Shown here piece after piece: positions 3,163 to 28,583 of a stretch of DNA of 49,199 nucleotides. The stretch is taken from contig CAVZSQ010000024.1 in assembly GCA_963777955.1 (NCBI GenBank), positions 1-49,199 on the forward strand, in the 5' to 3' direction. Source of the DNA: Calditrichia bacterium. Its GTDB lineage: Bacteria > Calditrichota > Calditrichia > JAJRVZ01. The position numbers and the translations under genes were made by a program. How positions within the stretch are numbered: the stretch's first letter is position 1; each line of letters opens with the position of its first letter. Below the pieces are notes generated by a model, which ran no database searches, was not told where the DNA came from, and was given only the letters and a program-made list of their open reading frames with translations.

Positions 3163-4258
3163 ATGAAACCATACCTACCAGAAACTTTACCACCCCGGAA
3201 TTTGGATTATGAAAGGCTTGTACGCCTCGTAGGTGAGGCGAATGCTGCATTAGCGAGATATGATGGATTACTACAAGTCTGTGGTTAATCCCGAAATTCT
3301 GCTTTCGCCGCTTACCACCCGTGAGGCGGTGTTATCGTCAAAGATTGAGGGCACACAGGCAACTGTTGATGAAGTGTTGCAGCACGAAGCGGGAATGTCC
3401 ATAAAAGATGACAATAAAAAACAAGATATCCAGGAAATTACGAATTATCGTTCAACATTAATTATTGCGGAGAAAAAACTTAAGGAAAATCCAATCACTT
3501 TATTTTTAATCCGGCAGATGCACCATGAGTTGATGAAAAGTGTTCGGGGTGAGAATAAAGAGCCCGGGAAGTTTAGAACAACACAGAACTGGATCGGTAA
3601 ACCTGGATGTCCTATTGAAGAAGCTAGATATGTTCCCCCGGAACCACCCATAGTGCAAGAGCATTTGCAAAATTTAGAACATTATATCCAAAGCACAAAT
3701 TCGGATGTGTTAGTTCAATCAGCGATTGTCCATGCCCAGTTTGAATTGCTTCACCCATTTTTAGATGGGAATGGCAGGATTGGACGCCTGCTCATACCAT
3801 TATTCCTTTATTATAAAAAGCGATTAAAGCGACCTATGTTTTATTTAGGTGAATATCTTGAATCTAATCGTGAGTTATACTATACGAAACTAAATGGTAT
3901 ATCTGCCAATGAGGAGTGGAACGATTGGATAGAGTTTTATCTGAAAGCTATTGAAGAACAAGGTAAAACAAATGTAAAAAGAGTACAAAATATACTTGAT
4001 CTATACAATAAAATGAGGGTTGTAATCAAGGAATTGATAAAATCGGAATATACAAATGATATCGTTGACGCTATATTTGAGAAACCAATTTTCAGATCGG
4101 TCGACATCCAGAAAAGGTCAAATATCCCCAAGCAAACTCTGATGCCAATTTTGAAAAAATTGATAACCGCAAATATAATAGTGATAATTAGAAAGGCTCA
4201 AGGAAGAAGCCCTGCTGTATTAAAATTTCCAAAATTACTGGAGATCACGGAAAAATAA
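3163..4258 (+). CDS. Fic family protein (adenylyltransferase) with N-terminal Fic_N region and probable C-terminal HTH; one frameshift near 3275
   Basis: Canonical HPFLDGNGRIGR motif and inhibitory SSKIEGT motif. The real start MKPYLPETLPP... at 3163 joins the 3260-4258 ORF by a 1-nt shift. Confidence 0.93.
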
Positions 4259-4401: not shown

Positions 4402-5304
4402 CTCTAAAGAAGATTAAAGATTGAAGAAATAAGATTAAAACTAAAGAGACAGAGATCGGAGACCTACCGCCAGGTAGGACAAATAGTCACAGAGACAAAA
4501 AGAAAACTAAGACACTGAGTAAAATTCACGGAGTACCTTAGACTTGAAATCAAAAATCACGACTAGGAAATACCAATTACAATTACAATTTACAAATTAC
4601 TAATTACTAATTACTTTTTACCATTGGAATTTAGTTTTTGGTACTTGGAATTTATTCTACGGTCGATAAACTCATCTGATCTGCAGCCTGCCACCAATCC
4701 TAATCCCTAAATATTTTTCTCCGTGGAACTCTGCCGAAGGTCTCCGTGTCTCTCCGTGTAATTCATTTACCCCAACCATTCACTAAAAAAATCCCCCCCG
4801 TTGTGTCGTACTTCACATTCTTAAAAATGCTTAATTCGTAATATGTAATTAGTAATTAAGACAGACTTAGTAATCTCTTAAAGGGCATTTTAGTAGTGGG
4901 ACTTTCCTTTTATTTTAAATTGTCAACTTGCTCTCTGCTAATGCCAAACATTTGAAAAAGAACGGTTTTATACTTGCTTTAATTTAAATGACATGGTAAA
5001 ATCAAAGATATCGTCATCTGAGTCTGTATTTTTCAGTTAATTTCCCCGGCATCAGACTTGCCGGGAGTAAAAATTGAAGTTATGTAGTTGTATCTATCCT
5101 GTGATCTGGAAGGTAATTTTTTTCTAAATTAATTCTTTATTTTATTTTGTGATATGAGACTAATGCGATTGCTTCAATGTGCTAAATCAGGATCCGCAAT
5201 GACGTATCCAGTACAGATCCCGTCATCCCGCCCAAGGCGGAGTGACACCTTGAGGGTCGTCTCGACTTCGCTCGACGACCGGTCTTGCGGTCCCCGAGCG
5301 GCTA

Positions 5305-8300
5305 GTGCTGAGCGGAATCGAGAGCAAGTCGAGAAGATACTCAGGAACTAAGGAACTAAGGAACTCAGTGCCTTTTTTGTCCCTCTGTCTCTTTGTCTCT
5401 CTGTCTCTTTTTCCCTTCGGCTCTGCTCTCGCCGACCAGGGCAGCAGCGATGGCTTCGGATACATGTGGACCGATGCCAAGGGCAGCATAACTGTACCGT
5501 ACAACTGGATCGATGTCAAAGGGGGCACCAGCCTGTTTGGTACCACCTTCAATGATAGTGTTTCTGCGGCGATCCCCTTGCCTTTCAGTTTTACTTTCTA
5601 CGGCAGCGCCAAAAACAGTATCTACGTATCATCCAATGGCTGGGCAGGTTTCAAAAACCCGGGCACAGATTCTTATCCAACTAATACCACCATCCCCTCC
5701 GGCTCCGGCCCGGATTCAATGCTGGCCGTGTTCTGGGACGATCTGCAAAGCTCTGCCGGAAATAACGGAGGCGTCTACTATTCGACCGTGGGCAGTGAAC
5801 CTAACCGGAAATTTATTATACAATGGTACATCCTGGACGGCTCACCTTCCCCTAATACAATTGAATTTGAAGTTATTCTATCTGAACACAGCAATTTAAT
5901 TAAATACCAGTATCATACCGTCGATGCAGCCTACGGCGGCGGACAATCTGCCACCATCGGCATAAAAGCCAGTACCTCGCGCGGCAACCTGTACAGTTTT
6001 GAAACTCTAAATTCAGTTTCAGCCTACTCCGCCACTTTATTCCATAACAGTACCGTCAGCAGTGTTTCTGCTGCCATTCTACCCGTTTCAGTCCCGGTCG
6101 GCAGTTTCCAGACTTTTACTTATACAATCAACAACATTCTGCCTGCCACCGCCGGACTGGGTAAACTGGATCGTTTCGCCATCAAGAATCCGTTTAGCAC
6201 TACTCCGGCAATAACCTCAATCGCGATCAATAATTTTAACTCGTACCTGCAATATTCCAGCAGTAAACCGACCGATCCGGGTTATGCCACCTGGTACTAT
6301 AAAACCCCCGGTGATTCACTGATCATCCAAACCTCAAGTTTTGATGTCGCCAGTGCTGTTGAAGTTCAATTCCTGCAGACGATTCCCGAAATCGCTACGG
6401 GTACATACATGTACCGCAGCAGTTCCGATGCTATACTTGATCTGAGTTCGCCCTACAATACTACGGGAGGACCCTCAATCACTGTCACAACTGGAGAATT
6501 GGATCATCTGATTATCCGCAACGCCAGCGGCGGTGGAGGTGCCGAGGTCGGTGCCCAGACACTCAACACCGATCAGTCACTAATCGTTTACGCCGCCGGT
6601 TATGATGCGGCGAGCAATTTTCTGGGCGATCAATCGGTTAACTGGACCCTGACCGGCAGCCTGGACGGCAGCGGCAGCACTGCCAGCAGTTACACCTTCA
6701 GCCCCAGTGTAGCCCCGACTGCCGGAACCATCGTGGCAACCAGCGGCGGTATAAACGACGCTACTGGTACGATTACGGTCAATACCGGCGCACTTGCATC
6801 ACCTGACCGTCCGCGATGCCGCGGCCGGAGGCGGGAATGAAGTTACTACCCGGTCCTTAACTACCGATCAATCATTAACTGTATACGCTGCCGGCTATGA
6901 TGCCGATAACAATTACCGCCAGGATGAAAATGCCACCTGGACCTCGACCCTGGGACTCAGCGGCTCGGGAACTTCCATTACTTTTAATCCGACCGTACCT
7001 GCCAGCGGTACTATCAGGGCCACTGTCAGCGGTATTTATGACGAGACCGGCCTGGTCACCGTCACTGTAGGAATTCTGCATCACCTGATCTGTTCGCGAT
7101 GCAGCCGCCGGAGGCGGCAATGCAGTTACTAATCATACCATGACTACCGATCAATCCTACACGATGTATGCTGCCGGATATGACGCCGATAATAATTACC
7201 GCCAGGACGAATCGGCCAACTGGACTTTGAATGGCAGCCTGGATGGCAGCGGCAGCAGCGGAACTACCAGTTATACCTTCAATCCCAGCATTGCCCCAAC
7301 TTCCGGGTCGATTGTCGCAGTGGTCGGCAGTATCAGTGATGTCACCGGAACAATCACCGTTAATACCGGGGCCCTGGACCATCTGACAATCCGCGATGCG
7401 GCCGCAGGCAGTGGCGCCGAAGTTACCACCCGCTCGCTGACCACCGATCAAGCACTAACTGTCTATGCCGCCGGGTATGACGCCGAAAATAATTATCGCC
7501 AGGACGAAAATGCCGCCTGGACATCAACTCTGGGACTCAGCGGTTCGGGAACTTCCATCACCTTTAATCCGACTGTACCTGCCAGCGGTACGATCCGCGC
7601 CACTGTCAGCAGCATCTTTGACGAAACCGGCCTGATCACGGTAACAGCCGGTGCATTGCACCACCTGATCATTCGCAACGCGGCCGGCGGAGGTGGTACG
7701 GAAATCACCACCTATTCCATGACCACCGACGATTCGCTGCGTTTATATACAGCCGGATATGATGCCGATAATAATTTTCTGGCCGATCAATCGGCCGTCT
7801 GGACCCTGACCGGCACCCTGGACGGCAGTGGTACCACCGGCACCACCTTTACTTTCCGTCCGCATATCTCCGGAACGTCCGGATTGATTGCGGCTACTGT
7901 CGGCACCCTGAGCGATTATACCGGAAACATAACCGTCAGCATCGGCACATTACATCATATTCGTATAAATACAGCCGCCATTGCCGGCGCAGCAGAATTT
8001 ACCGATCAAACCCTGACCACCGGTCAATCGGTCAATTTGTATTCTGCCGGTTATGATGCCGATAACAACTGGCGCTCGCTGGTCAGTTCCAACTGGACTT
8101 CGTCCGGAACTTTGGATGCAGTAAGTGCCAGTGGCACCAGCATGGTTTTTAATCCCGTTACCGCTCCGACTTCCGGAAGAATTATTGCAGTCAGTGGTGC
8201 CTTAAGAGACACTACCGGTACGATAAACGTCATCACCGGTTCAATTGCCTCGATACGAATCCGGACTGCAGCCGGAGGGGGCGGAGTAGAATTAGGGGCC

Positions 8301-11300
8301 AGCACCCTGACGGCAGATGACAGCCTGGCCATGTATGCAGCAGCATACGATGCCTCCAGTAATTACCTGGCCGATGTCAGTGTTACCTGGAATTCTACCG
8401 GTACCCTGGATGTCATCAATGCCACCGGAACCAGTTATATATTCAGGCCGGTCCGCGCAGCCGCTTCCGGCACCATTATCGCCACCAGCGGCAGCATCAG
8501 TGATTATACCGGCACCATCACGGTCAATGTCGGGATTCTGCATCACGTGCGGGTAAATACTTCGTCAGGATCGGCCGGAGTGGAATTTTTGACAGCCTCT
8601 CTCAGTGCCGGACAATCGGTTACTCTGTACAGCGCCGGTTATGATGCGGACAGCAATTACCGCGCTATGGTCAGCGCCACCTGGTCATCCACCGGAACCC
8701 TGGATGCGGTCAACGCCACCGGAACCAGTTATACTTTCCAACCGGTAACCGCGCCCAGCAACGGAACCATCGTGGCCACCAGCGGAAGTTTCAATGATGC
8801 CACAGGTTTAATAAATGTAATTACCGGAACCCTGAACCGGATTACCATCCGCACCGCAGCAGGGGGCGGAGGTAAAGCGCTGGGCGATACGACACTCACG
8901 GCAGACAATGCCCTCACCGTATATGCTGCCGGCTACGATGCCAGCAGTAATTATCTTTATGACGTAAATGTCAGTTGGACCTCCAGCGGTACCCTGGATA
9001 ACATAGTAGCCACCGGCAGCAGTTACACCTTCAATCCTGTCCTGGCTCCTTCTTCAGGCACCCTCATTGCCACCAGCGGCATTTATTCAGATAATACCGG
9101 AACCATTTCTATAACGGTCGGTGCATTACATCATGTGCGCATCAATTCATCCGCCGGGTCCGGCGGCCAGGAAACCGGCAGCGTCTCGATCACTGCAGAT
9201 CAAAGTTATACTTTCTATTGCGCCGGTTACGATGCCGATAATAATTATCACTCTCAGGTATCAGCCAGCTGGACTTCGTCCGGCAATTTAGATCCGGTCA
9301 GCGGCACAGGTACCAGTTATACTTTTAATCCGGTCGTGGCACCGACCTCAGGTACGCTCAGCGCTACCAGCGGAGCCATGAACGATGTCACCGGTACCGT
9401 TACTGTTTCCACCGGCGTCTTCCATCATATTGTGATCAATTCAGCGGACGGTTCCGCCGGCTTGCCATTCGGAAACCGGGTAATGACCGTCGATGAAACT
9501 GTTATTCTTTATGCCGCCGGCTATGATGCGGATAACAATTACCGGTCGGGCGTTAGTGCCTCCTGGTCCTCAACCGGTTCGCTGGATCCGGTGAGTGCGA
9601 CCGCTACGAATTATGCCTTCCATCCGGCTACCGCTCCATCATCAGGAACAATTATTGCCCTGTTCTCAGGCCAGCGGGACACCACCGGAACCATTACGGT
9701 TAATTCCGGATCGCTGGCCTCCATTATTATCCGCAACGCCGCCGGGGGCGGCGGAATTGCCATTGGTACTCACAGTATGACAGCTGTGGATACCCTGACA
9801 CTCTATGCAGCAGGGTACGATATCGGCAGTAATTTTCTGGCAGATGTCAATGTTTCCTGGTCATCGACCGGTACTTTGAATACCGTTTCCGCCACGGGCA
9901 CGAGTTATATTTTCAGACCGGTCACGGCACCGACATCCGGAACCATTGTCGCCACCAGCGGAGGATTGACTGACAATACCGGTACGATCACGGTAACACC
10001 CGGTGTGGCTGTGCGCCTGGTAGATCCGACCGGTTTAGGCGGAAACCGCACTACTGTTGCCGGCAGCACGCAACTTATCCGGATCAAGGTAGAGGATCAA
10101 CCCGGAAACGGGGTCAGCGGCCGGACCGTCAATTTTCTTCCAGCCGGATCGATGTCCGAACCGACGGTAATCACCGACGCTAACGGCATCGCCCAGACCA
10201 CCTTCACCACTCCGCGCGGATCAAATTCAGTTCAGGTGGAAGCAGCTCGTCTCCGGACTGTCCTCTTTTTATTTTACAGTTTATATGATTCAGTATGTCG
10301 AAAATTCATTATATCCCAAAGTGGTCATGCGCGGAAATACAGCTTCATTTTCTGCACAGATTTCCAATCCCGGGAATGTAGCTGTACCGATCAGCCTGGC
10401 TAATACACAAATTACTTTCAAAAGCGGTTCCATAACCTATACAGCCTCATTACAGTCGCCGTCTACTTTGCCGGCAGCCAATATGGCCATTCCCTTACAA
10501 TTTAACGGGGCCGTGGTCAACGCGTCCTTCCCGGGAGGCGCTTACACACCCGAAATCAAAATTGTGGGCCGTGACAGTTACAGTACAATGAACGGTTCGG
10601 TGGTCACCAATCCGGGTGAGCTCACCATAGGCGATTCTGAGATCACTCTCGGCCTGGTGGTGATTTCCCCCGACCAGGTCCTGCAGGGGGATACAGGAAT
10701 TCATGCTACCATGACCGTACAGAACCAGGGCATACCGCTGCCGATCGATCCTTATCCGGCGACCCGGCTCGTCTTTCGCCGGCATGATACCGGTGTGGAA
10801 CAACTTGTTGAAAATCTGACCCGTACCGATACCCTGACTGTTCTTCGTTATAATGTTCCCAGCGAATTCGAATTTGAGTTTGACATCCCGCACGATTATC
10901 TAACCGGGCAGATCGATGTCTATGGCGTACTAAGTCTGGACGATGGCAACTTAATAAAAATATCGGAGTATGCACTGGGATCGTTCCAGTCCAATTCAGC
11001 CGGGAACGCCAATTACGTGGCCGGCAGTTTACAACCGAATACCGCGATTCCCCGGGAAACAATAAATCTGAAGGCCTCGTTCAGCAATAGCGGGACTGCC
11101 GATATTCTTTTAAATCCGACTTTATCCTATATCGAAATACTGAATTCGGGACTCGGCAGCAGAACCCTGACCGGACAATTTACCCTGCTGGGCAATTCCA
11201 CCACTACCCTTTCTTTTAACAGCCTGACCATCCCACAATCCCTGGCGACAGGAGTTTACAATGTGCGCTGGACTTTATACGGCACAATGTCCAACGGAAT

Positions 11301-14300
11301 AGTTTTTTCAAAAACCGAAACGATTACCAATGGCCTGACGGTGTTAAATCCGGCCCGGCTGGTTTTTTCTACGATCACCATTCCCGCAACTGAAGTCCGC
11401 CTGGGTCAGAATGATGTGATTGTTGATTATAAAATCAGGAATCAGGGTCAATCTTCGGCCAGGGTCAGTTCGCTGAATCATAAATTCAGAAAATCGACAG
11501 GTGAAGAAATCCTCAATAATCAGTGGGTGCCTTTAAGCCTGCTCCCTGCCCTGCCTGATACTTTAACCCCGGGACAGGAAAGAACCTACCGGGCTATCTA
11601 TACCATCCTGCCTTCTGCGCCGACTGGTATGGTATATCCTATCCCCACGGTATCCTATCAGGATCTGCGTACGATTTCCTATACGGATATCGGACAAACT
11701 ATTGTGCAAACTGATTCGGTAAACGTGATCCGTCCGGCTTCCATGTATGTTTACGATTTGAGTATTATCCAGGACGGGCAGGCGCCCAATGCGCCTTATG
11801 TGAACCAGAACCGCGAATTTTCCTTGAAACTGGTTCTGCACAATTCCGGTGAAGATTTTATCGAAACCGCGACGGTACAAATCCTCAAGCAGGCAGATGA
11901 AACAGTAATCCGGGAACTGGAGGTTTTAGATATCGGACCCGGTTCATTCAAAGATGTCCTGATCAGCATTTCCGAAAATGAACTCGGTACCATGACCTAT
12001 CTTGCTTTCATCGACACGGCGCTGGATGTGCTGGGTGATCCCGTACTGATAACCCCGGCCCGGGATAATGCTGTCATCGTTTATGTCCAGAAACCGAGCA
12101 ACCTGAAGTTAGAGGCAGCCTTCGCACCGGAACAAAGTGAATCCGATTCCCTGATCGTTTCGCTGGATCAGAATTTCAAGGTGCGGGTAAATCTTGTCAA
12201 TGAAGGGCAGTCCGGGTTCCAGCAGAATGGCAGTCTGGTATTACGGTTGCCTGCTCAATATATCAATTTCATCAATGCCCAGGACAGCATTAAGTCTTTC
12301 ACGGCTCTACAGCAATACGTGGAATGGGATGTCCGGGCCACTGCTGTCAGTGCTGCGCCCCCGCAGGATTGGAACATATTAATCTTTGATATCAAAATCG
12401 TTCCGGTTGATTTGAACAGCGGTCAGAATGTGCCTTGCAGTATTGAATCGGATATCGTGAGAGTAAAGGTTGAAGATAGGGGTACAATTGTTCAGAATAT
12501 CGTTGCAATTGTAGGGCCGGACGGGGCGCGTGATGGTGAAGTATCCACTGACCAGATTTTCGAGGTACAGGCTGATATTATTTTTAATGCTACTGTTGCG
12601 GATACGGGGCGGTCAGCACGCCTGTTTATACCCACCGACTATGAGACTATTGAGGCGGATGAAATCGCCCTGCCGATCGGAACGGATACCTGCCGGGTGG
12701 TCTGGTCAGTGCGGGCCCCGGATCAGGCTTTCAATCAAAATTATCTAAGGGTGGTGGTCAGTGCTTACGATCAGAACAGCGGCCTGAGTCTCAGTAAAAC
12801 ATCAAATCAGACACCCGTCCGCACCGTGATGAAAGCTCGACTGATACCATCCTTAAGAATAGCGAAATTTGCCGGAGCGGATAATGATACACTTTCAGTC
12901 GGACAGACTTTCATACTGGAAGCGTTGGTGGCAAACCAGGGCCAGGCTGAAGCCGAAGGTACCGGAAAAATTTATATCCGGGAATTGGGGGCCAATCCTG
13001 CCTTTACCCGGCTCGATACACTGAACAGTGCAAGCGACACTCTGTTTTTCACAGTCGGGCAAACGGTGCGCTGGTATTTACAGGTAAATTCGATCGATGG
13101 TCTGGAGAAAACAGGTGGTCTGATGGCAACAACCGCACAGACAGAATTACAGGATTTGTTCAGATCACTTCAAAATGAAACTGAAGCACAGTCACAGTAC
13201 AAAACCGCTGGCGCCAATAATGGATTCAGGGTCAGCAGAGCCGCCGAGATTTTTAACCAGATTGTATCTTTGCTGCAATCGACTAGCCAATAGCAGCCAG
13301 GATCTGAAAGTGAAGGTATCGTCAGTCCCCCTGGATGAAAACTCTTCAAGTTCTGCTTTCCTGATCAGCGACAGCGGGCAAACCACCGCCTATATTCAGC
13401 AGAAAGCTGCGATCTTAACAGCACACACTATTGTGGCCGACACTGTATCCACCGGTCAGACGTTTTCATATACCGTCCACGGGGAGTTCAGTTCTAATTT
13501 AATTGATGCCCGGGCTATTCTACAACTACCGGCCAGTTTTAATAGTACCGTCTTAGAAGCAACATTTAATGACCAGAATCAGGCTACCTGGAGTAGTATC
13601 CCTGTTCCCTCAACAGCAGAGTATACCGGTACCGCCAGTGAAACATTAAAGGTACTGATAAAAGGTACAGATATGAATACGGGTAAGACAGTTTGGTCCG
13701 GTTCTCCCATCCTGGATACCCTGACTGTCCAGTTAAAGCCGAAATTGTACATGAAAGGCGAGGTTGTCGCTCCGGCTTACGCAAAATCATCCGGGATACT
13801 CACCTATGGTCAGATCGTAACAATTGATGTATGGCCGGGTCTGGTTTACCAGCAAAGCGGACTGGAGTATGCCGGAATCGAAGGAAGCGGAACTATCATA
13901 CTGAACAACAATCTTTTCACCGCGGATAAATTTGTCGCGGTAGAAGGTGAAGAATACGAGAAAACCTTCGCAGCCATCGGGCAAAAAGTTACATTCAAAG
14001 TAAGGGCGCCTGTCGGAGACCGTACCGCCAGTATTAATTTCAGAATTAGAAACCTGCCCCTGGATAAAAACAGTCGTCTCGCGGCAGATGTCGACGTGGA
14101 CAGCGGCACCGTTTCTATCCCGATCCGGGTGCGCCATAAAGAGATTACCGTGACCGTGCTGGACAGTCTGATTACAAACACAATTTTCGCCCGGGGAGCC
14201 GGATCAAATCTGCTTTTAGCCTTCCGGATATCCAATGTGGGATCTCAGGATCCGCTGACCCTGAAAGGGGTGGAACTGACCTTCATAAACAATAACGATA

Positions 14301-15002
14301 CCAGTGCGCTGAGCGCTCAGACCCTGATTAATATGCTGGATTCAGTGCAGGTGATTAATTATAGCCAGTACCTGACACTGCTGGGCCAGGATCCCGGCGA
14401 CGACCAGCCAGCCGCCGCAGGTTTTCGCCGATTATAAACTTAACGAATCGAATATAAATAATCCGTTTAAAATAAGCTTTACTACGGAATGTACTTTGGA
14501 TTCGACCGATATTCAAGATGTGCTGGTATTGGTCAAGTTCAATTCAAATTCTATTATCCGCAGTTTCCGTACCAGGCTCAGCGATGTGATCGCCTATGAT
14601 TATGGCTCGAATTCTCCGGTAACAATGACGGGAAAAGATGAACCGCAACTAATCTCCCCGGTATTCTCTACATCAACCAATGATCCGAAAGAAGGATTCT
14701 TCAATTATCCTAATCCCTTCGGACAGCCGCCTCACGAGACGACCAAAATCGTGTTTTACCTCAACACCACTACCAGTGCCGATGTGACCGTCCGGATTTT
14801 CACCCTGATGGGGGAACTGGTAAAGTCAAAGTGGTATAAAAACCTGAATAATTTAGCGAGGGGAACCTACGACTTCCTGGAATGGGATGGGCGAAATGAC
14901 CGGGGCTACAAGGTGCTTAATGGAGTATATTTAGGTATTATTGAGATTAAATCTGATGGGATTGTACAAAAGTATGTTACTAAAATTGCCTATATTAAGT
15001 GA
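5305..15002 (+). CDS. Giant (~3,200 aa) secreted surface protein/adhesin: signal peptide, N-terminal DGFGY..WID domain, 12 Ig-like repeats, Big_1/CARDB-like domains, C-terminal FlgD/T9SS-like sorting domain; about five frameshifts
   Basis: Track ORFs 5305-6840, 6794-7132, 7140-10403, 10285-13293, 13175-14437 and 14496-15002 join by single shifts, and the repeat pattern continues across the first junctions. The C-terminus reads NYPNPF...WDGRNDRGYKVLNGVY. The start is uncertain (GTG 5305, or ATG 5154 with another shift). Confidence 0.8.
6490..10005 (+). repeat. 12 tandem intragenic repeats of ~282-297 nt (mostly 294 nt, 98 aa)
   Basis: The YAAGYDA-like motif recurs near 6595, 6890, 7173, 7470, 7752, 8046, 8340, 8634, 8928, 9222, 9516 and 9810. 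Confidence 0.9.
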
Positions 15003-17447: not shown

Positions 17448-17479
17448 GAGGCACTGAGGCACTATGGCACTGAGGCACT
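17448..17479 (+). repeat. 8-bp tandem array (GAGGCACT)x4, left arm of cassette A
   Basis: Read directly. Reverse complement of the array at 17804-17883. Confidence 0.9.
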
Positions 17480-17506
17480 TAGGAAGAAAAATACCGAAGT
17501 AGAAAA

Positions 17507-17727
17507 TTAAGTAATTGAATTTGATTGACTGATTTTATTTATTAGTGATTTTAAGATAATTTCTATTTCTCTGATATTTCTATAAATAGATTCATAGTTT
17601 GATTTGGAAATGAAATTTAGATTCAATCCTATTTCAGACGGGTCTGCAATTCATATACCGAACCCATCGCAATATTTAGAAAGCGGATATAATCTTTGGT
17701 CGACTTTGCATTTTCAATCTTATCCAT
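17507..17727 (-). pseudogene. Internally deleted four-helix-bundle (IVP/Avd-like) gene, cassette A
   Basis: Not in the ORF track. Manual translation gives MDKIENAKSTKDYIRFLNIAMGSVYELQT/EIGLNLNFISKSNYESIYRNIREIEIILKSLINKI, which matches the C-terminal half of 22870-23241. Confidence 0.8.
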
Positions 17728-17803
17728 ACAATTGGTAATACAACAATCATACCAATTTTTTTAGATACCAATTTTTTATAAATTATATGTTTAATTTATT
17801 TCA

Positions 17804-17883
17804 GGTGCCTCAGTGCCGTCAGTGCCTCAGTGCCTCAGTGCCTCAGTGCCTCAGTGCCTCAGTGCCTCAGTGCCTCAGTGCCT
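17804..17883 (+). repeat. 8-bp tandem array (AGTGCCTC)x~10, right arm of cassette A
   Basis: Read directly. Ends 1 nt from the stop codon at 17885. Confidence 0.95.
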
Positions 17884-18929: not shown

Positions 18930-19102
18930 GCTGTCCTCCCGGACCTAACCTGCTTCTGCTGATCAATATATTAATTGTTATGGTAAAAGGGTAATAAAAA
19001 AAGGGACAAAGAGACAAAGGGACAAAGGGAAAAAGAGACAGAGATTTACCCCCTAGGTAAAGGTCGGGGAAACGACCGGCATTAGAGCTGACCCACCCCC
19101 GG

Positions 19103-19146
19103 CCCCTCCCTATCAGTCCGGCAGGCGCCGGACTGATAGGGAGGGG
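19103..19146. repeat. Perfect 20-bp GC-rich hairpin (REP-like)
   Basis: CCCCTCCCTATCAGTCCGGC-aggc-GCCGGACTGATAGGGAGGGG. Confidence 0.9.
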
Positions 19147-20504
19147 TTTGGGGAGGGTCAATCAATCTATAACTCAATTCCTGCTGAAAGCAGCAGTTGC
19201 GCACCCACCATAACCGAAAATCCCTGCAGATTGTCAAGGCGGTTCAGATAATGATTTTTTTTGGCACTGTACTTGACCTGCGTATAAAAGGTCAGCTGGC
19301 CTGAAAAGAAATAATGGACTTCCAGCCTGTTGACCAGGTTCTCGGTTACCGGTTCGACCGGAAATTTTTCCTTGACCGCATAAAACAGATCACTCAGGGT
19401 AACATCGCCATAGCGGCCCACGATCGTCTCGTTTTTAAAATACCAGGGAAACCAGCCCCAGTAGTTCAGATTCAGTTTTATTTCCTCGCAACTGGCACAG
19501 GGATAGCCCAGGCCCAGTTGACGGTACATCATAATTCTCATAGGTCCGGCCCGACTGATATGTTCTGTTCCAGACACGTACATAGGTGATATCCACCGCC
19601 GCGCCCCGGGCCAGCAGATCGGCCGTGCGCAGGCTGGACTGTACCGCCAGGCGGTCCGGGTAGCGGGCCCGGTCATTGACCCCGGGATCATTATTCACAA
19701 TAAAATCATCGATCAGAAATTGGGTATAGAGTGAAATTTCAGGCCATGGTTTATAAAAAAGATCGATGTTCCAGAATCCATTCAACTGTTTATTATCATT
19801 CCGCTGCAGGCCATAATAAAAGGTCATCGGATTCAAAAAGGTCCAGTCAAACTGTTCCTGGTCCCCTCCAAACGTGGCCATTTCAGTCAGGGCCAGTTGA
19901 ATTTTTGGCGAGATAGCCAGGTCCAGCCGGTGTCCGACCAGGTAGCGTTTGGCATCCCGTATACTGTTGATTGTATCCGGGATCCTGGTTTTTTCAAAAC
20001 CGTCAATATCATCCAGTTTTGCGGCCAGAACCGAGAGTTTTATTTTCTTATAAGTGTAAGAAAATAAAAAATGATCGTAACTGTAGGGATGGTTGGATAA
20101 AATCAGGCTGTATGATCCCGGCGGTCCCCAGTTCCGGTTTATCCGTCCAAAAAATATCTGGCAGTTGCTGAAGTGGACATCGATATAGGCATCATTGGTC
20201 CGTCCATACAACCAGTTTTTTGATTCGGACAGATCGCCGGCATAGTAAGGATCATGTTTATAATCCTGGTTAACTCCGGTGCGGTTAGCCAGGGTGACCA
20301 GGTCTGTGGCCAGGTGAATACTGCCACTGGCCCGGTAGCGGTTATAAACCACATCATGATAATGACCTTCGATCATTTAATTGAATCTGCCCCGAAACAC
20401 TGCCCGTTCCGTAATAATACTGCCAGTATCTTTTGAAAAATTCATAAGGTTTCGGATTGTTCTCCGTTTTAGCCCAGACCCTTGAATCATACGGTTGCTG
20501 GAAG

Positions 20505-20852
20505 ACGAAATCCGGCGACACCTGCGGACAGGAAAGATACAAAGGGACAAAGGAATAAAAGGAATAATCTTAAAAAACGGCATATTAATTGCATATGTAA
20601 ATCTCGGATTAATAAAACATGACGAAGGAAATATATTATGGAAAAGCAGATAATCAAAACTTACGTGATCTAAAGATCTGGCAAAAGTCAATTGAAATGG
20701 TAACCGCAATATACAAGTTGACTTCTCATTTCCCGGATAGAGAATTATTTGGAATAACTACACAAATTCAGCAGATCATCCATATCAATACCAAGCAATA
20801 TTGCCGAAGATAAAATAAAAAAAAATTTTAAACGAAATCCGGCGACACCTGC
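20505..20852 (+). repeat. Exact 21-bp direct repeat ACGAAATCCGGCGACACCTGC at 20505-20525 and 20832-20852
   Basis: Read directly. The two copies flank the N-terminal four-helix-bundle fragment. Confidence 0.95.
20638..20812 (+). pseudogene. N-terminal half of a four-helix-bundle gene (fragment B)
   Basis: MEKQIIKT/RDLKIWQKSIEMVTAIYKLTSHFPDRELFGITTQI/RSSISIPSNIAE. Preceded by an AAGGA RBS, a sigma54-like box and a degenerate GGGACAAA array (20526-20567). Confidence 0.85.
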
Positions 20853-20944
20853 CCGGAATTGATCAGGTAATTTATGTAGTCATTACTGCTGTGGTCGAGG
20901 TAGATGTATTTGGTACCGTCCTGAGCCTGAGGAAACAATGGGAT

Positions 20945-21088
20945 AAAGAGACAAAGAGACAAAGAGACAAAGAGACAAAGATCGCAGACCTACCGCTAGG
21001 TAGGGACAGAGAGACAGAGAAGGCACTAAGGCACTGAGGCACTTAGAAACATAGCGACAAAGAGACAAAGAGACAAAGAGACAGAGAG
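20945..21088 (+). repeat. Mixed 8-bp array (GAGACAAA, GAGACAGA, GAGGCACT), left arm of cassette C
   Basis: Read directly. Contains the embedded hairpin CCTACC-gcta-GGTAGG. Confidence 0.92.
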
Positions 21089-21142
21089 AATATGGTTGAC
21101 GATAATTATACATTATTTATTTCTTCCTTTTATCAATGTATT

Positions 21143-21299
21143 TATTAGATCTCTATCCGAAACGCAAACTCAACTTTTAATATCCTTAAATCTGGGTTAT
21201 ATAGCAGAAAAAGATTTTAAGTCTTTAGCTGAAAACAGTCTTGAAATTGAACAGATGGTAAGCTGTCTAATCAGAAAATTAAAAAGCAAAGTAAAGTAG
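21143..21299 (+). pseudogene. C-terminal fragment of a four-helix-bundle gene (fragment C)
   Basis: SLSETQTQLLISLNLGYIAEKDFKSLAENSLEIEQMVSCLIRKLKSK aligns to SLAEMQTQLLISLNLDYL...EIERMLSSLIRKLKAK. Confidence 0.85.
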
Positions 21300-21322
21300 A
21301 AATCGCTAAGTTATAAGTTAAA

Positions 21323-21400
21323 TTTCTCTCTGTCTCTCTGTCTCTCTGTCTCTCTGTCTCTCTCTGTCTCTCTGTCTCTCTGTCCCTCTGTCCCTCTGTC
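21323..21400 (+). repeat. 8-bp array (TCTCTCTG/TCCCTCTG)x~9, right arm of cassette C
   Basis: Read directly. Confidence 0.95.
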
Positions 21401-21597
21401 GATATGGCAGATATTCAAGAAAAGAATATATCAGATTTTTAGGCATATCGTTGGGATCTTTATATGAAATGCAAACACAATTGCAAATTTCACTGAACCT
21501 TGGCTATCTATCATCAGAAAACTTTCACTCCCTTTCGGAAGGAAGCAAAGAAATTGAACGCATGTTAAGCGGACTTATAAGGAAATTGAAGTTATAA
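21401..21597 (+). pseudogene. C-terminal half of a four-helix-bundle gene (fragment D)
   Basis: Not in the ORF track. YGRYSRKEYIRFLGISLGSLYEMQTQLQISLNLGYLSSENFHSLSEGSKEIERMLSGLIRKLKL*, followed by a (CTCTGTCC)x4 array at 21632-21666. Confidence 0.88.
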
Positions 21598-21679
21598 GAA
21601 TATAAAATTAAATAAATTAATATTTAATTTATCTCTGTCCCTCTGTCCCTCTGTCCCTTTGTCCCTTAGTACTACTTTA

Positions 21680-22741
21680 CTACCCCAACAACACCCCAAT
21701 CCGTTCCACCATCTTCTCCGCCACGCTGTAGTTGCCGAAGACCGGCGGCGGAGTACCCGTGGGATTAAAATAGCGTACGGTGTTGAGCAATCCTTCGGCA
21801 TCATTGCCGATGACAATATTCCAACCCGCTTTAACGGTTTCAATCCATTCGGTCTCCGGGCGCAGGGTGATGCAGGGAACTTTCAACAGGTAGGCTTCTT
21901 TCTGAATACCCCCTGAATCGGTCAGTATGCGGCTGGCATTTTTTTCCAGTATCAGAAAATCGAAGTACCCCTGGGGATCGGTCAGCACAATATTAGCGGC
22001 AATATTCAGTTTATATTCTGTAATCATTTTACGGGTGCGGGGGTGAATTGGAAAAATGACCGGTAAGTCCAGCCTGGCGATGGCGTTCAGTACGTTTTCC
22101 AACTTGTGCATATCATCAACCGTATAAGGGCGGTGCAAAGTCAGCAGGTGATATTTTTTTGATTTTAATTGCAGTGTCTGCAGTACAGTAGAATTTTTCT
22201 CGGCCAGCGGCAAACTATTATGCAGGGTATCAAGCATTATATCGCCGCTGAGGAAAGTTCGTTTTTCCAATTTCTCCGTGGCCAGATTTTCGACAGCGGT
22301 TTTAGTCGGGGCAAACAGCAGATCGCTGCAGTGATCGGCCACGATACGGTTGATCTCCTCCGGCATACTGCGGTTGAAACTGCGCAGGCCCGCTTCCACG
22401 TGGACAACAGGTATATGCAGTTTGCTGCCTGCCAGGGCTCCGGCCAGCGTGGAATTCGTATCGCCAAAGACCACCAGCAGATCCGGTTTTTCCCTTAACA
22501 TGATTGTTTCCAGGGCGATCAGCATCTGGCCGGTCTGCACGCCGTGGCTTTCCGAGCCGATTTCCAGGTTATAATCGGGCGCGGGGATTTGCAGATCCTG
22601 AAAAAAGTTGCCGGACATATTTGGATCATAATGCTGACCGGTATGAATAATGATCTCATCATACCGTTCGCGGATTTTTTTGGAGAAAGGGGCCAGTTTG
22701 ACGAATTGGGGTCGGGCACCGACGATGGTGGTTATTTTCAT
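21680..22741 (-). CDS. wecB: UDP-N-acetylglucosamine 2-epimerase (non-hydrolysing)
   Basis: [30 protein letters not shown] and [10 protein letters not shown] motifs. GAGG RBS before ATG 22741. Confidence 0.96.
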
Positions 22742-22816
22742 AGTACCTCGGTTTGTTGGAATAAAGAGACAAAGAGACATAGAGACAAAGAGACAAAGTG
22801 GAAAATAGTACTATAT

Positions 22817-22832
22817 TGGTACAGTATTTGCA
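22817..22832 (+). promoter_or_regulatory. Sigma54-type -24/-12 promoter
   Basis: TGGTAC-AGTAT-TTGCA against the consensus TGGCAC-N5-TTGCA. Equivalent boxes at 20578-20593 (+) and 17739-17754 (-). Confidence 0.6.
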
Positions 22833-22869
22833 TATGTCTATTATGAATTTAATCTAAAGGAAATTTATT

Positions 22870-23241
22870 ATGGACCAACTGAAGATCAAAACCTATCGTG
22901 ATTTAATTGTATGGCAGAAATCGATTAATATTGTGACTGAAATTTACAGGGTGACCAAACAATTTCCCAAACAAGAGACTTTTGGCTTAGTACTACAGAT
23001 CAGAAGGTCTTCTATATCAGTTCCTAGTAATATTGCCGAAGGATACAGCAGATATTCGAACAGAGAATTCACCAGATTTTTGGAAATCGCTATAGGATCC
23101 CTGGCTGAAATGCAAACTCAGCTGCTGATATCTTTGAACTTGGATTATCTACCAAATAATGATTATATAATTCTGACTGAGTCCGGCAGAGAAATTGAAA
23201 GAATGTTAAGCAGTTTAATCAGGAAATTAAAAGCAAAGTAA
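22870..23241 (+). CDS. Four helix bundle protein (23S rRNA intervening-sequence protein / Avd-like family)
   Basis: YRDLIVWQKS, FPKQETFGLVLQIRRSSISVPSNIAEG and RFLEIAIGSLAEMQTQL. 123 aa. Confidence 0.95.
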   Translation: MDQLKIKTYRDLIVWQKSINIVTEIYRVTKQFPKQETFGLVLQIRRSSISVPSNIAEGYSRYSNREFTRFLEIAIGSLAEMQTQLLISLNLDYLPNNDYIILTESGREIERMLSSLIRKLKAK

Positions 23242-23402
23242 AGTATAATTCATTAAATTTTATGTTTAATTTACTTTGTCTCTTTGTCTCTTTGTCTCTT
23301 TGTCTCTTTGTCTCTCTGTCTCTTTGTCTCTTTGTCTCTTTGTCTCTTTGTCTCTTTGTCTCTTTGTCTCTTTGTCCCTTTGTCCCTTTGTCCCTTTGTC
23401 CC

Positions 23403-25469
23403 TTAATTACTCCTGGCATGTCTGAACAAAATATTATACCACGCCTTGAAAAAATACTTCACATCGGTGGTAAAGGGATGTTTTTGTTTGCTGTCCAGGT
23501 ACTTCCGTTCCGAGGCCAGGATTTCCTCGAATGATTTAGGCATATCGGCGTAAAACGGCGGTACCAGTCCGGGTTTGAACTGGATGCGCAATTCCTGCAG
23601 ATCTTTGGGGTACAGGCTGAAATATTGTTCGCTCAGCGCGCGTACGCCGACCAGGTTGAGATCGCCGCGAAAAAAGTTGATGATCTGCGGCAGTTCGTCC
23701 AGCCACAGTTTGCGCATGAAACCGCCCCACTCGGTCAGACGAAAGTCGTCCTTGAATTTACCGCCCGATTGCAGTTGATTCTGTTCGTAAACATATTCCT
23801 GCAGATATTCCGAATAAGGATACATGGTGCGGAATTTATGTATGTAGTTGATTTCACCTTGTAAACCTACCCGCCGCAGTTTGATGGTCGGCCCATAGGA
23901 AGGGCTTTCATCCACCGACGGCGTGCGTACCCGCTTGGCAATTATATAGGCGGTTTCATTATATTCTCTTTCAGCGATTACTTTAAAGCCGCAGAAATAA
24001 AGCCGGCCCATAATTTCGGCCCGGGAGATCATCCGGTTTTTACCTTTAGTCAGAGCAAAGTAAACTTTCTGCAAACCGGGAAGTTTGGGCATAACGCGGT
24101 GAACGATAAAATTCAAAATATAGATGCCATCGGCAAAGATCCTGGGATACTTGCGGTAAATGCGGATCTTATGTGTCTGAATTGTATCGGCGATAGTGAC
24201 AAAGTATCCGCCGTTATATATTTTTTTATGTACCTGCAGAAAGTAGCGGTTCAGCCAGCGAAAGTCATTGGCCCGGTGCAGGTTGATCAGCAGGGTCAGC
24301 GAGTGATCGTCAATCGTGGCTATATTATAAAGTGTATGGGTATCGACCACCAGGGCATCCCGTTCATCGATGGTGTTCAATTGCAGGTGTGATTCGATAA
24401 AGTGATAGAGCGCCGGAAAATCTTTAAGGAATTTATTTCTCAAGCGTTCATTGGCCGGCACCAGTTCCCGGTTGGCCAGGTGGGCCAGGTGCAGCAGTTC
24501 ATCCGGCAGTTCCTCCTGCTTCAGGGTCTGGTTCAATTCCTCCACGGTTTCGATATCGCTGTTCTGATTTGATTCGTTGCGGGTGATGAACCAGAGATAG
24601 TAGGTGATCATTTCGATAAAGGTGAACAGCAGAAAGGTACCGAAGATCTGCAGACGGGAAAAATAGAGCAAACGCTTGGCGAACATCAGCAGGGCCATGG
24701 TGGCAAACATCAGTATGGCTGCCTTGACATAGGGGGCAATGGCATAATAGTAATTTCTGTACTTGCGGCGTTCAAATTTGCGGGTAAAGATGGAGGTGAC
24801 CAGCCACAGACCGCAGATTACAAAAAAGATGTTTTCGTAATCCTCCGATAAATAAAAACTGCCCCGTTTGAAATAATTCATCAGGAAAAAGGAACCGGTC
24901 AGCAGCATAAAGTCGAACAGCAGACTGGGGATGGAGAAGGAACCGAATTTATGGATCTGTTCGCGGTACTCTTCCTGGTTTTGTACTATTCCTTTGCCGA
25001 CAGTCAGGTAAAAAACATAAAAAGCTGCTATTTCCAAAATAAAAAGCAACGTACAGGTACCGAAGATCTGGATACGTGAAAATGAGTAATAACCCATAAT
25101 GACCACGATCACCGACAAACTGTAAATTTTGAATACCGCGCAGCGGCCGATGGTCAGAAAACCATTTTTCAGATTGGGATAGTTGGACAGGTTGAACTTG
25201 CCGGTAGCCAGGGAGACAATTAGCCATAAAGCATAAAATAGCAGTAACAGGTTAAAATAGGGATGGGGTACCAGTTGCAGCGTCCCCCTTTTATAATAAT
25301 GCATGCTGAAATAAGCGATATTCAGCAGGAAGAAATCGACTACCATAAACTGCCAGGTGATCTTTTTACTGAGCAGGTCACGGCCGAAGGTCTGCAGGCC
25401 ATAGGTCTGCAAAGATGGTTTCTGCTGCTGCAGATCTATAGCATTATCGATTTCAGACGTAATTTTCAT
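23403..25469 (-). CDS. Priming sugar (polyprenyl-phosphate glycosylphospho)transferase with extended N-terminus
   Basis: C-terminal Bac_transf motifs KFRTM, LDELPQ..N..RGD..LVG.R and KPGL. Multiple N-terminal TM helices. Confidence 0.9.
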   Translation of the reverse strand: MKITSEIDNAIDLQQQKPSLQTYGLQTFGRDLLSKKITWQFMVVDFFLLNIAYFSMHYYKRGTLQLVPHPYFNLLLLFYALWLIVSLATGKFNLSNYPNLKNGFLTIGRCAVFKIYSLSVIVVIMGYYSFSRIQIFGTCTLLFILEIAAFYVFYLTVGKGIVQNQEEYREQIHKFGSFSIPSLLFDFMLLTGSFFLMNYFKRGSFYLSEDYENIFFVICGLWLVTSIFTRKFERRKYRNYYYAIAPYVKAAILMFATMALLMFAKRLLYFSRLQIFGTFLLFTFIEMITYYLWFITRNESNQNSDIETVEELNQTLKQEELPDELLHLAHLANRELVPANERLRNKFLKDFPALYHFIESHLQLNTIDERDALVVDTHTLYNIATIDDHSLTLLINLHRANDFRWLNRYFLQVHKKIYNGGYFVTIADTIQTHKIRIYRKYPRIFADGIYILNFIVHRVMPKLPGLQKVYFALTKGKNRMISRAEIMGRLYFCGFKVIAEREYNETAYIIAKRVRTPSVDESPSYGPTIKLRRVGLQGEINYIHKFRTMYPYSEYLQEYVYEQNQLQSGGKFKDDFRLTEWGGFMRKLWLDELPQIINFFRGDLNLVGVRALSEQYFSLYPKDLQELRIQFKPGLVPPFYADMPKSFEEILASERKYLDSKQKHPFTTDVKYFFKAWYNILFRHARSN

Positions 25470-28469: not shown

Positions 28470-28526
28470 ATCATAACCAATTACAATGACCAATAACAAA
28501 TCCAATAATCAATTACCAAATTCATA

Positions 28527-28583
28527 CGAATTACTAATTACGAATTACCAATTAGTAACTGGTAATTAGTAATTGGTAATTCG
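28527..28583. repeat. Back-to-back inverted 7-bp arrays (AATTACN / NGTAATT)
   Basis: cgaattactaattacgaattaccaatt followed by agtaactggtaattagtaattggtaattcg. Confidence 0.8.

Follow-up and report, generated by a model that had tools for sequence, protein, structure and literature searches.

A four-helix-bundle gene between inverted arrays of 8-nucleotide words: an apparently undescribed intergenic cassette with turnover at a fixed site in Calditrichia

The window analysed here is a stretch of 49,199 nucleotides from a Calditrichia bacterium (GenBank assembly GCA_963777955.1, contig CAVZSQ010000024.1, positions 1 to 49,199 of the forward strand). It corresponds to contig C24 of the genome designated G000 (4.24 Mb, 92% complete); the congener used for comparison is designated G001. 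Between a sugar transferase gene and wecB, which belong to a host operon on the minus strand, lies a cassette whose gene is carried on the plus strand and is thus antisense to its neighbours. The features of the locus are as follows.

22762–22798, plus strand: 5' arm, rich in purines on the gene strand, with five W-N-A-G cores spaced at period 8 (word C-AAAG-AGA).
22817–22832, plus strand: promoter-like box TGGTAC-N5-TTGCA, which fits the sigma-54 -24/-12 spacing and, by inspection, also an extended -10.
22856–22862, plus strand: RBS-like purine-rich run upstream of the start codon, assigned from sequence only.
22870–23241, plus strand: intact four-helix-bundle (23S_rRNA_IVP / TIGR02436) gene of 123 aa, identified by profile matches (hereafter the IVP gene).
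23261–23273, no strand assigned: AT-rich spacer on the inner side of the arm that adjoins the host stop codon.
23274–23405, plus strand: 3' arm of 17 complementary cores, expanded, the outermost word of which takes in the host stop codon.
23403–25469, minus strand: sugar transferase (polyprenyl-phosphate, Bac_transf), 688 aa, the upstream host gene, whose stop codon is one boundary of the cassette.
21680–22741, minus strand: wecB (UDP-GlcNAc 2-epimerase), the downstream host gene, with its RBS 13 nt from the 5' arm.
20505–21666, plus strand: group of broken cassettes in the interval from a wzi-like gene to wecB, comprising two 3' halves that retain arms and one 5' half (arm, box and N-terminal codons).
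17448–17883, minus strand: internally deleted cassette of another subtype (word CTGAG-GCA).
17632–17712 (minus strand), 20664–20774, 21123–21260 and 21403–21573: four IVP fragments with Pfam matches.

The left array (22763–22798) is AAAGAGAC, 4.5 copies, and the right array (23274–23404) is CTTTGTCT, 16.4 copies. The sugar-transferase stop codon (23403–23405) overlaps the first repeat word, and the GAGG of the wecB RBS is 13 nt away from the nearer arm. A preliminary description of this DNA had placed the cassette antisense and exactly between the stop codon and the wecB RBS; its placement is exact at the stop and 13 nt off at the RBS. Both of the 8-mer arrays that it had reported around the 123-aa gene, and the AT-rich spacer near the complementary array, are present. 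The spacer motif was also found at the border of the remnant at 17797 and, as a variant, at the border of the cassette at C22:468557. With a single mismatch, the arms are able to pair over 37 bp (-59.7 kcal/mol on the plus strand and -58.5 kcal/mol on the host-mRNA strand), and folding of the whole cassette gave z values of -3.2 and -3.3 relative to 20 shuffles. Rfam searches gave no match over the cassette and, in the window, just sub-threshold miRNA matches on the hairpin at 19090–19160. Scanning for sigma-70 promoters and terminators yielded two sites against 2.8 expected and one against 0.7, respectively. The four further fragments counted previously within 6 kb are real Pfam matches, and no transposase, integrase or RT was detected among the 57 distinct ORFs scanned (156 ORFs are listed in the window), in line with the earlier account.

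The promoter-like box meets the GG-N10-GC spacing and the genome contains a sigma-54 gene (PF04552 match). The sigma-54-like box claimed earlier is thus present with a suitable spacing; the label itself is a consensus match only, the same letters fitting an extended -10, and GT replaces GC in four of six array-linked boxes. Several subtypes of local cassette share the motif, which is also seen on the metagenome contig L385 and upstream of a GxxExxY gene; in other phyla it is rare. It was found in 6 of 101 homologous loci (three of them from this genus) and in 4 of 64 loci of a second set. Because the box lies inward of the 5' arm, a transcript starting there would lack that arm and only host read-through RNA would carry both arms.

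Further remnants surround the intact copy. The leader of the cassette at 17448–17883 is close to the full cassette that occupies the sugar-transferase/wecB gap in G001. The 5' half cassette at 20505–20851 (arm, box, N-terminal codons and an A-rich tract) breaks the wzi-like gene, which is uninterrupted in G001, and is bracketed by exact 20-bp direct repeats (20505/20832, seen in the assembly only); the fragment at 21401–21666 picks up where it ends. This arrangement could be due to insertion at a staggered cut or to misassembly. Indel errors are frequent in G000 (0.18 frameshifts per kb, with 101 of 526 orthologues frame-split), so lone frameshifts in other copies may be artefacts and are no proof of pseudogenes; the large deletions in other cassette copies are not assembly artefacts. 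Many of the split ORFs in the window, e.g. 7140–14437 and the wzi-like gene, are possibly products of indel errors. REP-like G/C hairpins adjoin 8-mer arrays at 5200–5330 and 19050–19170, and such mosaics are common in the intergenic gaps of both congeners. Pyrimidine-rich arms continue in frame into downstream gene starts at 5376–5416 and in locus L063 (G001:C302, ~4520–4630), where by eye they seem to encode a hydrophobic signal-peptide region. A Fic-domain gene at 3260–4258 adjoins the first 2 kb of the contig end, which is very AT-rich (23–26% GC).

The protein of the window matches PF05635 (E = 3.9e-39, 133.6 bits against a cut-off of 33.8) and TIGR02436 (E = 5.4e-38, 129.6 bits against a cut-off of 24) and is basic (pI 9.6). 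Its closest solved relatives are 2GSC (Xcc0516; E = 1.6e-22) and 2RLD (BT_0352; E = 7.2e-7), each entry containing five chains. The predicted structure (pLDDT 94.8) consists of four helices and superposes on 2GSC with a TM-score of 0.89 and an r.m.s.d. of 0.7, and on both 2RLD and Avd (4DWL) with a TM-score of 0.79; the model shows the Xcc0516/BT_0352/Avd fold. In passages of PMC4990558 and bioRxiv 2023.10.23.563531, Xcc0516 is described as a homopentamer and Avd as a pentamer in which all five protomers contact one RNA stem-loop via flipped-out bases. By analogy with these relatives, we infer that the window protein forms a homopentameric ring. The likeness to Avd proposed earlier holds for the fold and fails for family membership, the scores falling below cut-off for the Avd equivalog model NF033474 (25.6 against 80 bits) and for PF22296 (33.8 against 40 bits). 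A search for an RT in trans had also been suggested; no match to PF00078 was found in G000 (92% complete). Membership of a DGR was rejected on account of the sub-threshold Avd score and the absence of an RT match in G000. The IVP family is present in 29 of 31 genomes of the class. Estimates from coding sequences gave dN/dS values of 0.06–0.15 in the 11 of 12 IVP pairs that were computable (host median 0.079), which shows the protein to be under purifying selection. Genes of this type are noted within cas operons in PMC3936711, and several of seven viral IVP loci have periodic flanks as judged by eye.

Four states of the sugar-transferase/wecB gap were recorded. In the window the IVP gene is antisense and the word is CAAAG-AGA. 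In G001 (contig C302) the IVP gene is in the sense orientation with the word CTGAG-GCA, and its product is 52% identical to the window protein, against 87–88% for the host genes. The metagenome contig L385, which stops short of wecB, carries an antisense IVP gene with the word CAGAG-GCA (54 and 58% identity to the other two), and on L409 only gene-less arms are present, with 350 nt to wecB. The three IVP genes found at one gap are therefore 52–58% identical to each other, lie in both orientations and are accompanied by different words. No clean empty junction was found here in 11 genome loci or 68 distinct metagenome junctions, and no target-site duplication is visible at this site, which offers no clean empty junction for comparison. 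After the same sugar-transferase stop, relatives (L015, L016, L019, L023, L386 and L390) carry other small cargo genes, 7-mer arrays and a distant IVP gene. By eye, the small cargo genes are presumably of the HicA/HicB, GIY-YIG and ORF6N types.

Other sites show the same turnover. The G000 cassette at C22:411k is internally deleted and its G001 counterpart is whole; conversely, a short remnant at G001:C37 corresponds to a whole cassette in G000. Near-identical copies at different sites, G000 C22:468k and G001:C134, differ by a dS of 0.224, and among 120 host orthologues the first percentile of dS is 0.34, the median 0.78 and the minimum 0.187. These two copies spread after the genomes split, because their dS is below the first percentile of the host orthologues. 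At an unrelated site in Flavobacterium, sampled in 30 loci, 13 are filled, 16 are without gene and arms and one is cut off; five 5' cores are present in 10 of the 13 filled loci and one or two in the gene-less ones. IVP identity to the reference copy at that site is 44–90% in the 12 other filled loci, against 86–97% for the host gene. The cassette is an exchangeable, discrete unit that is replaced at fixed sites and reaches new sites between close relatives, and it decays by internal deletion to arms without a gene. A CTTAG-GCA cassette lies within CAAAG-type arm remnants at G000:C22 ~468480–469110 and G001:C37 ~1290–1480, and these nested arms suggest that new cassettes may insert into older arrays. 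A further subtype-A cassette at G000:C15 ~319227–319498 is heavily decayed and was missed by the Pfam search.

The arrangement was then assessed in homologous loci. The flanks of 110 loci were examined, 101 of them having both flanks, by inverted-repeat alignment with a score of at least 30. Flanks aligned as inverted repeats in 59 of the 101 loci; the corresponding figures were 2 of 188 for neighbouring control windows, 8 of 101 for the direct orientation and 82 of 1000 for mismatched pairs. A second set gave inverted flanks in 42 of 64 loci. The non-autonomous, turning-over unit put forward in the preliminary description is borne out by the filled, replaced and gene-less states at orthologous sites, and the enrichment of inverted arrays around the family by the alignments above. 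Two outcomes had been named in advance as speaking against it, a lack of site polymorphism and a lack of array enrichment; neither occurred, because both polymorphism and enrichment were found. The IVP gene is co-directional with both neighbours in 78 of the 101 loci and antisense to both, as in the window, in eight.

Array period tracks the protein tree (a quick tree of 95 loci selected for equal period in both arms): the period-8 label changes 11 times, against 31.6 times when shuffled. The window protein falls in a branch of 39 rows, 37 of which are period-8. Such a tree signal, like the sharing of words described next, can also be expected from plain linkage between gene and arms. Words are shared only by proteins more than 50% identical, whichever genome they come from (cosine 0.23 versus 0.03), and the possibility of genome-specific words was rejected, same-genome paralogues less than 40% identical having no words in common.

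Each arm consists of consecutive degenerate C-W-N-A-G-N3 words and, as shown STATISTICALLY, their number peaks at five and falls beyond; in this period-8 consensus the phase of AG was set by the script and the C was not. Within an arm the cores are conserved and the spacers vary. In 78 unselected loci, four, five and six cores were counted in 11, 30 and 4 of the 5' arms and in 13, 29 and 1 of the 3' arms, with 31 of the 78 loci behind the peak coming from one linked Flavobacteriaceae cluster. Without that cluster the 5' counts are 7, 10 and 2, a modest peak, and the 3' counts are 4, 13 and 0. De-replication at 70% identity leaves five cores in 12 (5') and 12 (3') of 41 loci, and taking one locus per site (30 sites) gives a weaker peak, with four/five/six values of 4.1/8.2/1.3 for the 5' arm and 3.6/6.7/0 for the 3' arm. 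In a diverse, mostly period-7 set, selected by a filter that 10 of 40 shuffles also passed, the 5' mode is at five (19 of 66) and the 3' arm has three cores in 21 cases and five in 19. The window has exactly five cores in the 5' arm and 17 in the 3' arm; local subtype-A 5' arms have seven or eight. The repeat words expand and diversify, as had been proposed.

The best overall explanation, to which we give an even chance, is an exchangeable gene with two inverted arms at gene ends, the protein of which forms a ring that binds one word per subunit. The unit begins at a host stop codon; purine-rich words precede the gene and complementary ones follow it, and both arrays travel with the gene. A homopentameric ring would bind an arm; one word per subunit is suggested because arm counts peak at five and the solved relatives are pentamers. 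By our own reasoning, single-stranded nucleic acid is the most likely ligand, because a period of 7–8 is mismatched to the DNA helix. One purine-type site would be present at the 5' end of each strand, so that the unit would work in either orientation. More tentatively, binding to an arm might mark or protect the ends for capture, exchange or spread. An enzyme encoded elsewhere, be it of host recombination or an HUH transposase, may move the cassette; recombination between flanks or older arrays is another possible route. No linked moving enzyme was found; four Y1 transposase (Y1_Tnp) matches in G000 are all on other contigs. The hundreds of gene-less arrays would be decayed or non-autonomous copies.

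The distribution of arrays over the genome bears on an alternative, which we consider unlikely, that the arrays are independent gene-end repeats among which small genes including the IVP gene were captured. The protein would then not recognise the words, and movement would occur by ordinary homologous recombination and horizontal transfer. G000 contains 251 period-7/8 arrays against one in a block-shuffled copy, and the arrays are therefore not due to chance; runs of at least three C-W-N-A-G-N3 words number 230, against 1–4 in three shuffles. The arrays form a genome-wide family mostly without an IVP gene, of which only about ten pieces were found, as capture would lead one to expect. Array sites also turn over without any IVP gene: at 26 orthologous sites, six have the same strand and spacer in G001, 14 have a different spacer or strand and six have no array there. 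This comparison covered 1.38 Mb of G001 (100 of ~590 contigs) and 26 of 41 sites by a consensus-run count, which was used instead of an exact-tandem classifier that under-called degenerate arrays. Inverted arms were present at all of six other G000 loci inspected, with differing words.

Cargo other than the IVP gene is consistent with capture as well, namely the other small genes that follow the same stop codon in relatives and a GxxExxY gene with arms of its own. The latter (PF13366; L282, G000:C22 ~188380–189200) has inverted arms and a TGGTAT-N5-TTGCA box as in IVP cassettes, and since this gene is unrelated, the arms are not exclusive to the IVP family. Protein similarity and word similarity showed no significant overall correlation in a Mantel test (rho 0.034; 184 of 1000 permutations). 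Capture accounts poorly for the joint gain and loss of gene and five-core arms at the Flavobacterium site, and for the association of one period and one consensus with one protein branch across Bacteroidota, Planctomycetota, Nitrospirota, Thermodesulfobacteriota and Verrucomicrobiota. Nor does it predict cores that are conserved while spacers vary, a core count that peaks at five instead of decaying, or the IVP remnants kept in some gene-less hairpins.

Many words include the palindrome CTNAG and fit the consensus on both strands (80 runs genome-wide). The stop triplets within CTAAG, CTGAG and CTTAG may account for arrays overlapping stop codons. Period-7 arrays (AATTAGT / TACTAAT), found in the window at 28525–28581 and 4571–4625, belong to another abundant word family of G000.

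The preliminary description had regarded the arms as an RNA stem that loops the cargo out. Stated fully, the cassette would be an mRNA analogue of an rRNA intervening sequence (IVS), with arms that pair in the host transcript and cargo excised by RNase III, leaving the insertion harmless or the flanking genes uncoupled. We regard this as quite improbable, and the claim of a functional stem was not upheld. Mismatches in the arms of 71 loci show no G-U strand bias (99 versus 114, p = 0.34) and 318 other mismatches, not of the wobble type, are present. Among 20 loci whose two arms both have five cores, 17 of them from one linked site cluster, variable positions are no more complementary in register than out of register (0.46 against 0.53). 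Neither of these two tests found selection for an RNA stem. The order of arms is fixed as purine then pyrimidine (19 versus 1 arm pairs in G000, and also 22 versus 4 and 22 versus 6), though either order makes a stem, and the 5' arm would be absent from a transcript starting at the internal box. What excision would explain is the near-perfect 37-bp stem possible on the host-mRNA strand and the start of arms at stop codons: purine arrays follow plus-strand stops in 24 cases and pyrimidine arrays in none, and at minus-strand stops there are 14 pyrimidine and three purine arrays. A precedent is the Coxiella IVS with a family member, for which passages of PMC4990558 give a 28-bp terminal stem, 5' tandem heptamers and RNase III cleavage in vitro. 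In 72 of 95 comparisons a locus has arms more alike than those of the nearest relative; a degree of joint evolution or pairing of arms may therefore have taken place, and RNase III cleavage may occur as a by-product where the arms are homogeneous, as in the window.

There is a slight chance, in our estimate, that the protein is a domesticated regulator, an RNA-binding pentamer comparable to TRAP or Hfq. Gene-end arrays would be its sites in host mRNA, with effects on termination, on decay or on how the next gene is translated, and the cassette would regulate itself. Such a role would agree with the strong purifying selection, the polarisation of arrays to gene ends where they abut RBSs, the similar fall-off of gene-less runs after five (G000 has 100 runs of three words, 90 of four, 66 of five and 15 of six) and the proposal in MacGregor 2015 (PMC4679880) of an unidentified post-transcriptional regulator for TAACTGA runs, which are intergenic and comprise two to six copies. 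Against it, array sites are not conserved between the congeners, the majority of G000 copies are broken, and the replacement of one subtype by another at a site is more in keeping with selfish turnover than with a stable regulon.

The favoured reading, an exchangeable gene whose protein ring reads its own arms, may extend further, although we think this doubtful. The cassette might then represent an undescribed class of minimal mobile element, with a pentameric ring that counts five periodic words per end as its sole product; it would insert at stop codons or older arrays, replace rival subtypes and leave behind the 7-/8-mer intergenic repeats that have long lacked an explanation in many bacteria, and ORF-bearing rRNA IVSs and the Avd of DGRs would be special cases derived from it. 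To our knowledge, no function has been assigned outside DGRs to the IVP/S23p family, for which structures have been solved, nor is there an accepted origin for the short tandem repeats found between genes in many bacteria; the cassette connects these two problems. The prediction is that a ring of five subunits binds five words and that every subtype binds its own word. If true, the ligand of a widespread family would be named, a class of repeats would be explained, and there would be an example of a natural protein whose reading of periodic words differs in specificity between subtypes. With four states recorded for one site, the window locus is well suited to testing this.

Among known systems, Avd (4DWL) resembles the window protein in its four-helix fold and as a basic protein, and differs in sequence (13% identity, below the Avd cut-off) and in that no RT was found in G000. 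Xcc0516 (2GSC) and BT_0352 (2RLD) are stand-alone S23p/IVP relatives, and their tie to five-word arms is a hypothesis of the present work. Cyanobacterial STRR heptamers are intergenic short tandem repeats of the same kind as the arrays. The TAACTGA runs, in the passages of PMC4679880 searched, are likewise abundant, oriented, intergenic few-copy runs with a patchy, probably horizontal distribution and a mechanism that is not known; those passages make no mention of four-helix or S23 proteins. Unlike both of these, the cassette arrays have period 8, occur as inverted pairs and are tied to a cargo gene.

MITEs and REP/REPIN-RAYT systems are small, non-autonomous intergenic units with inverted ends and fast turnover. 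The cassette shares with such systems the terminal inverted repeats and the presence or absence at orthologous sites; REP-like hairpins occupy the same gaps, and four Y1 transposase matches are present in the genome. Unlike these systems, it carries a selected, apparently non-catalytic gene with an intact ORF (family dN/dS as given above), its arms are degenerate periodic arrays and not one conserved end, and no transposase is linked to it.

No published description of a gene with periodic arms of this kind was found in full-text searches of a library with few subscription journals, and the cassette, a real IVS-type variant with turnover documented at the window's own site, is apparently undescribed. 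The nearest parallel is the 23S rRNA IVS of Coxiella (helix 45) and Leptospira, where, in passages of PMC4990558, a family protein is encoded in the loop of terminal inverted repeats, the number of repeats varies and the ORF decays, as in the cassette; the Coxiella IVS has three purine-rich GACAGAT heptamers upstream of its ORF, similar to the 5' words seen here. As in an IVS, the terminal inverted repeats of the cassette can form a long stem round the ORF (37 bp). Unlike an IVS, it sits between protein genes (sugar transferase and wecB) and not in rRNA, in either orientation, its arms consist wholly of periodic words, and it has a promoter-like box of its own and a gene under purifying selection. 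The cassette is not a member of the IVS class, of the DGRs or of the MITEs in the strict sense; its closest functional likeness is to an ORF-bearing IVS relocated outside rRNA.
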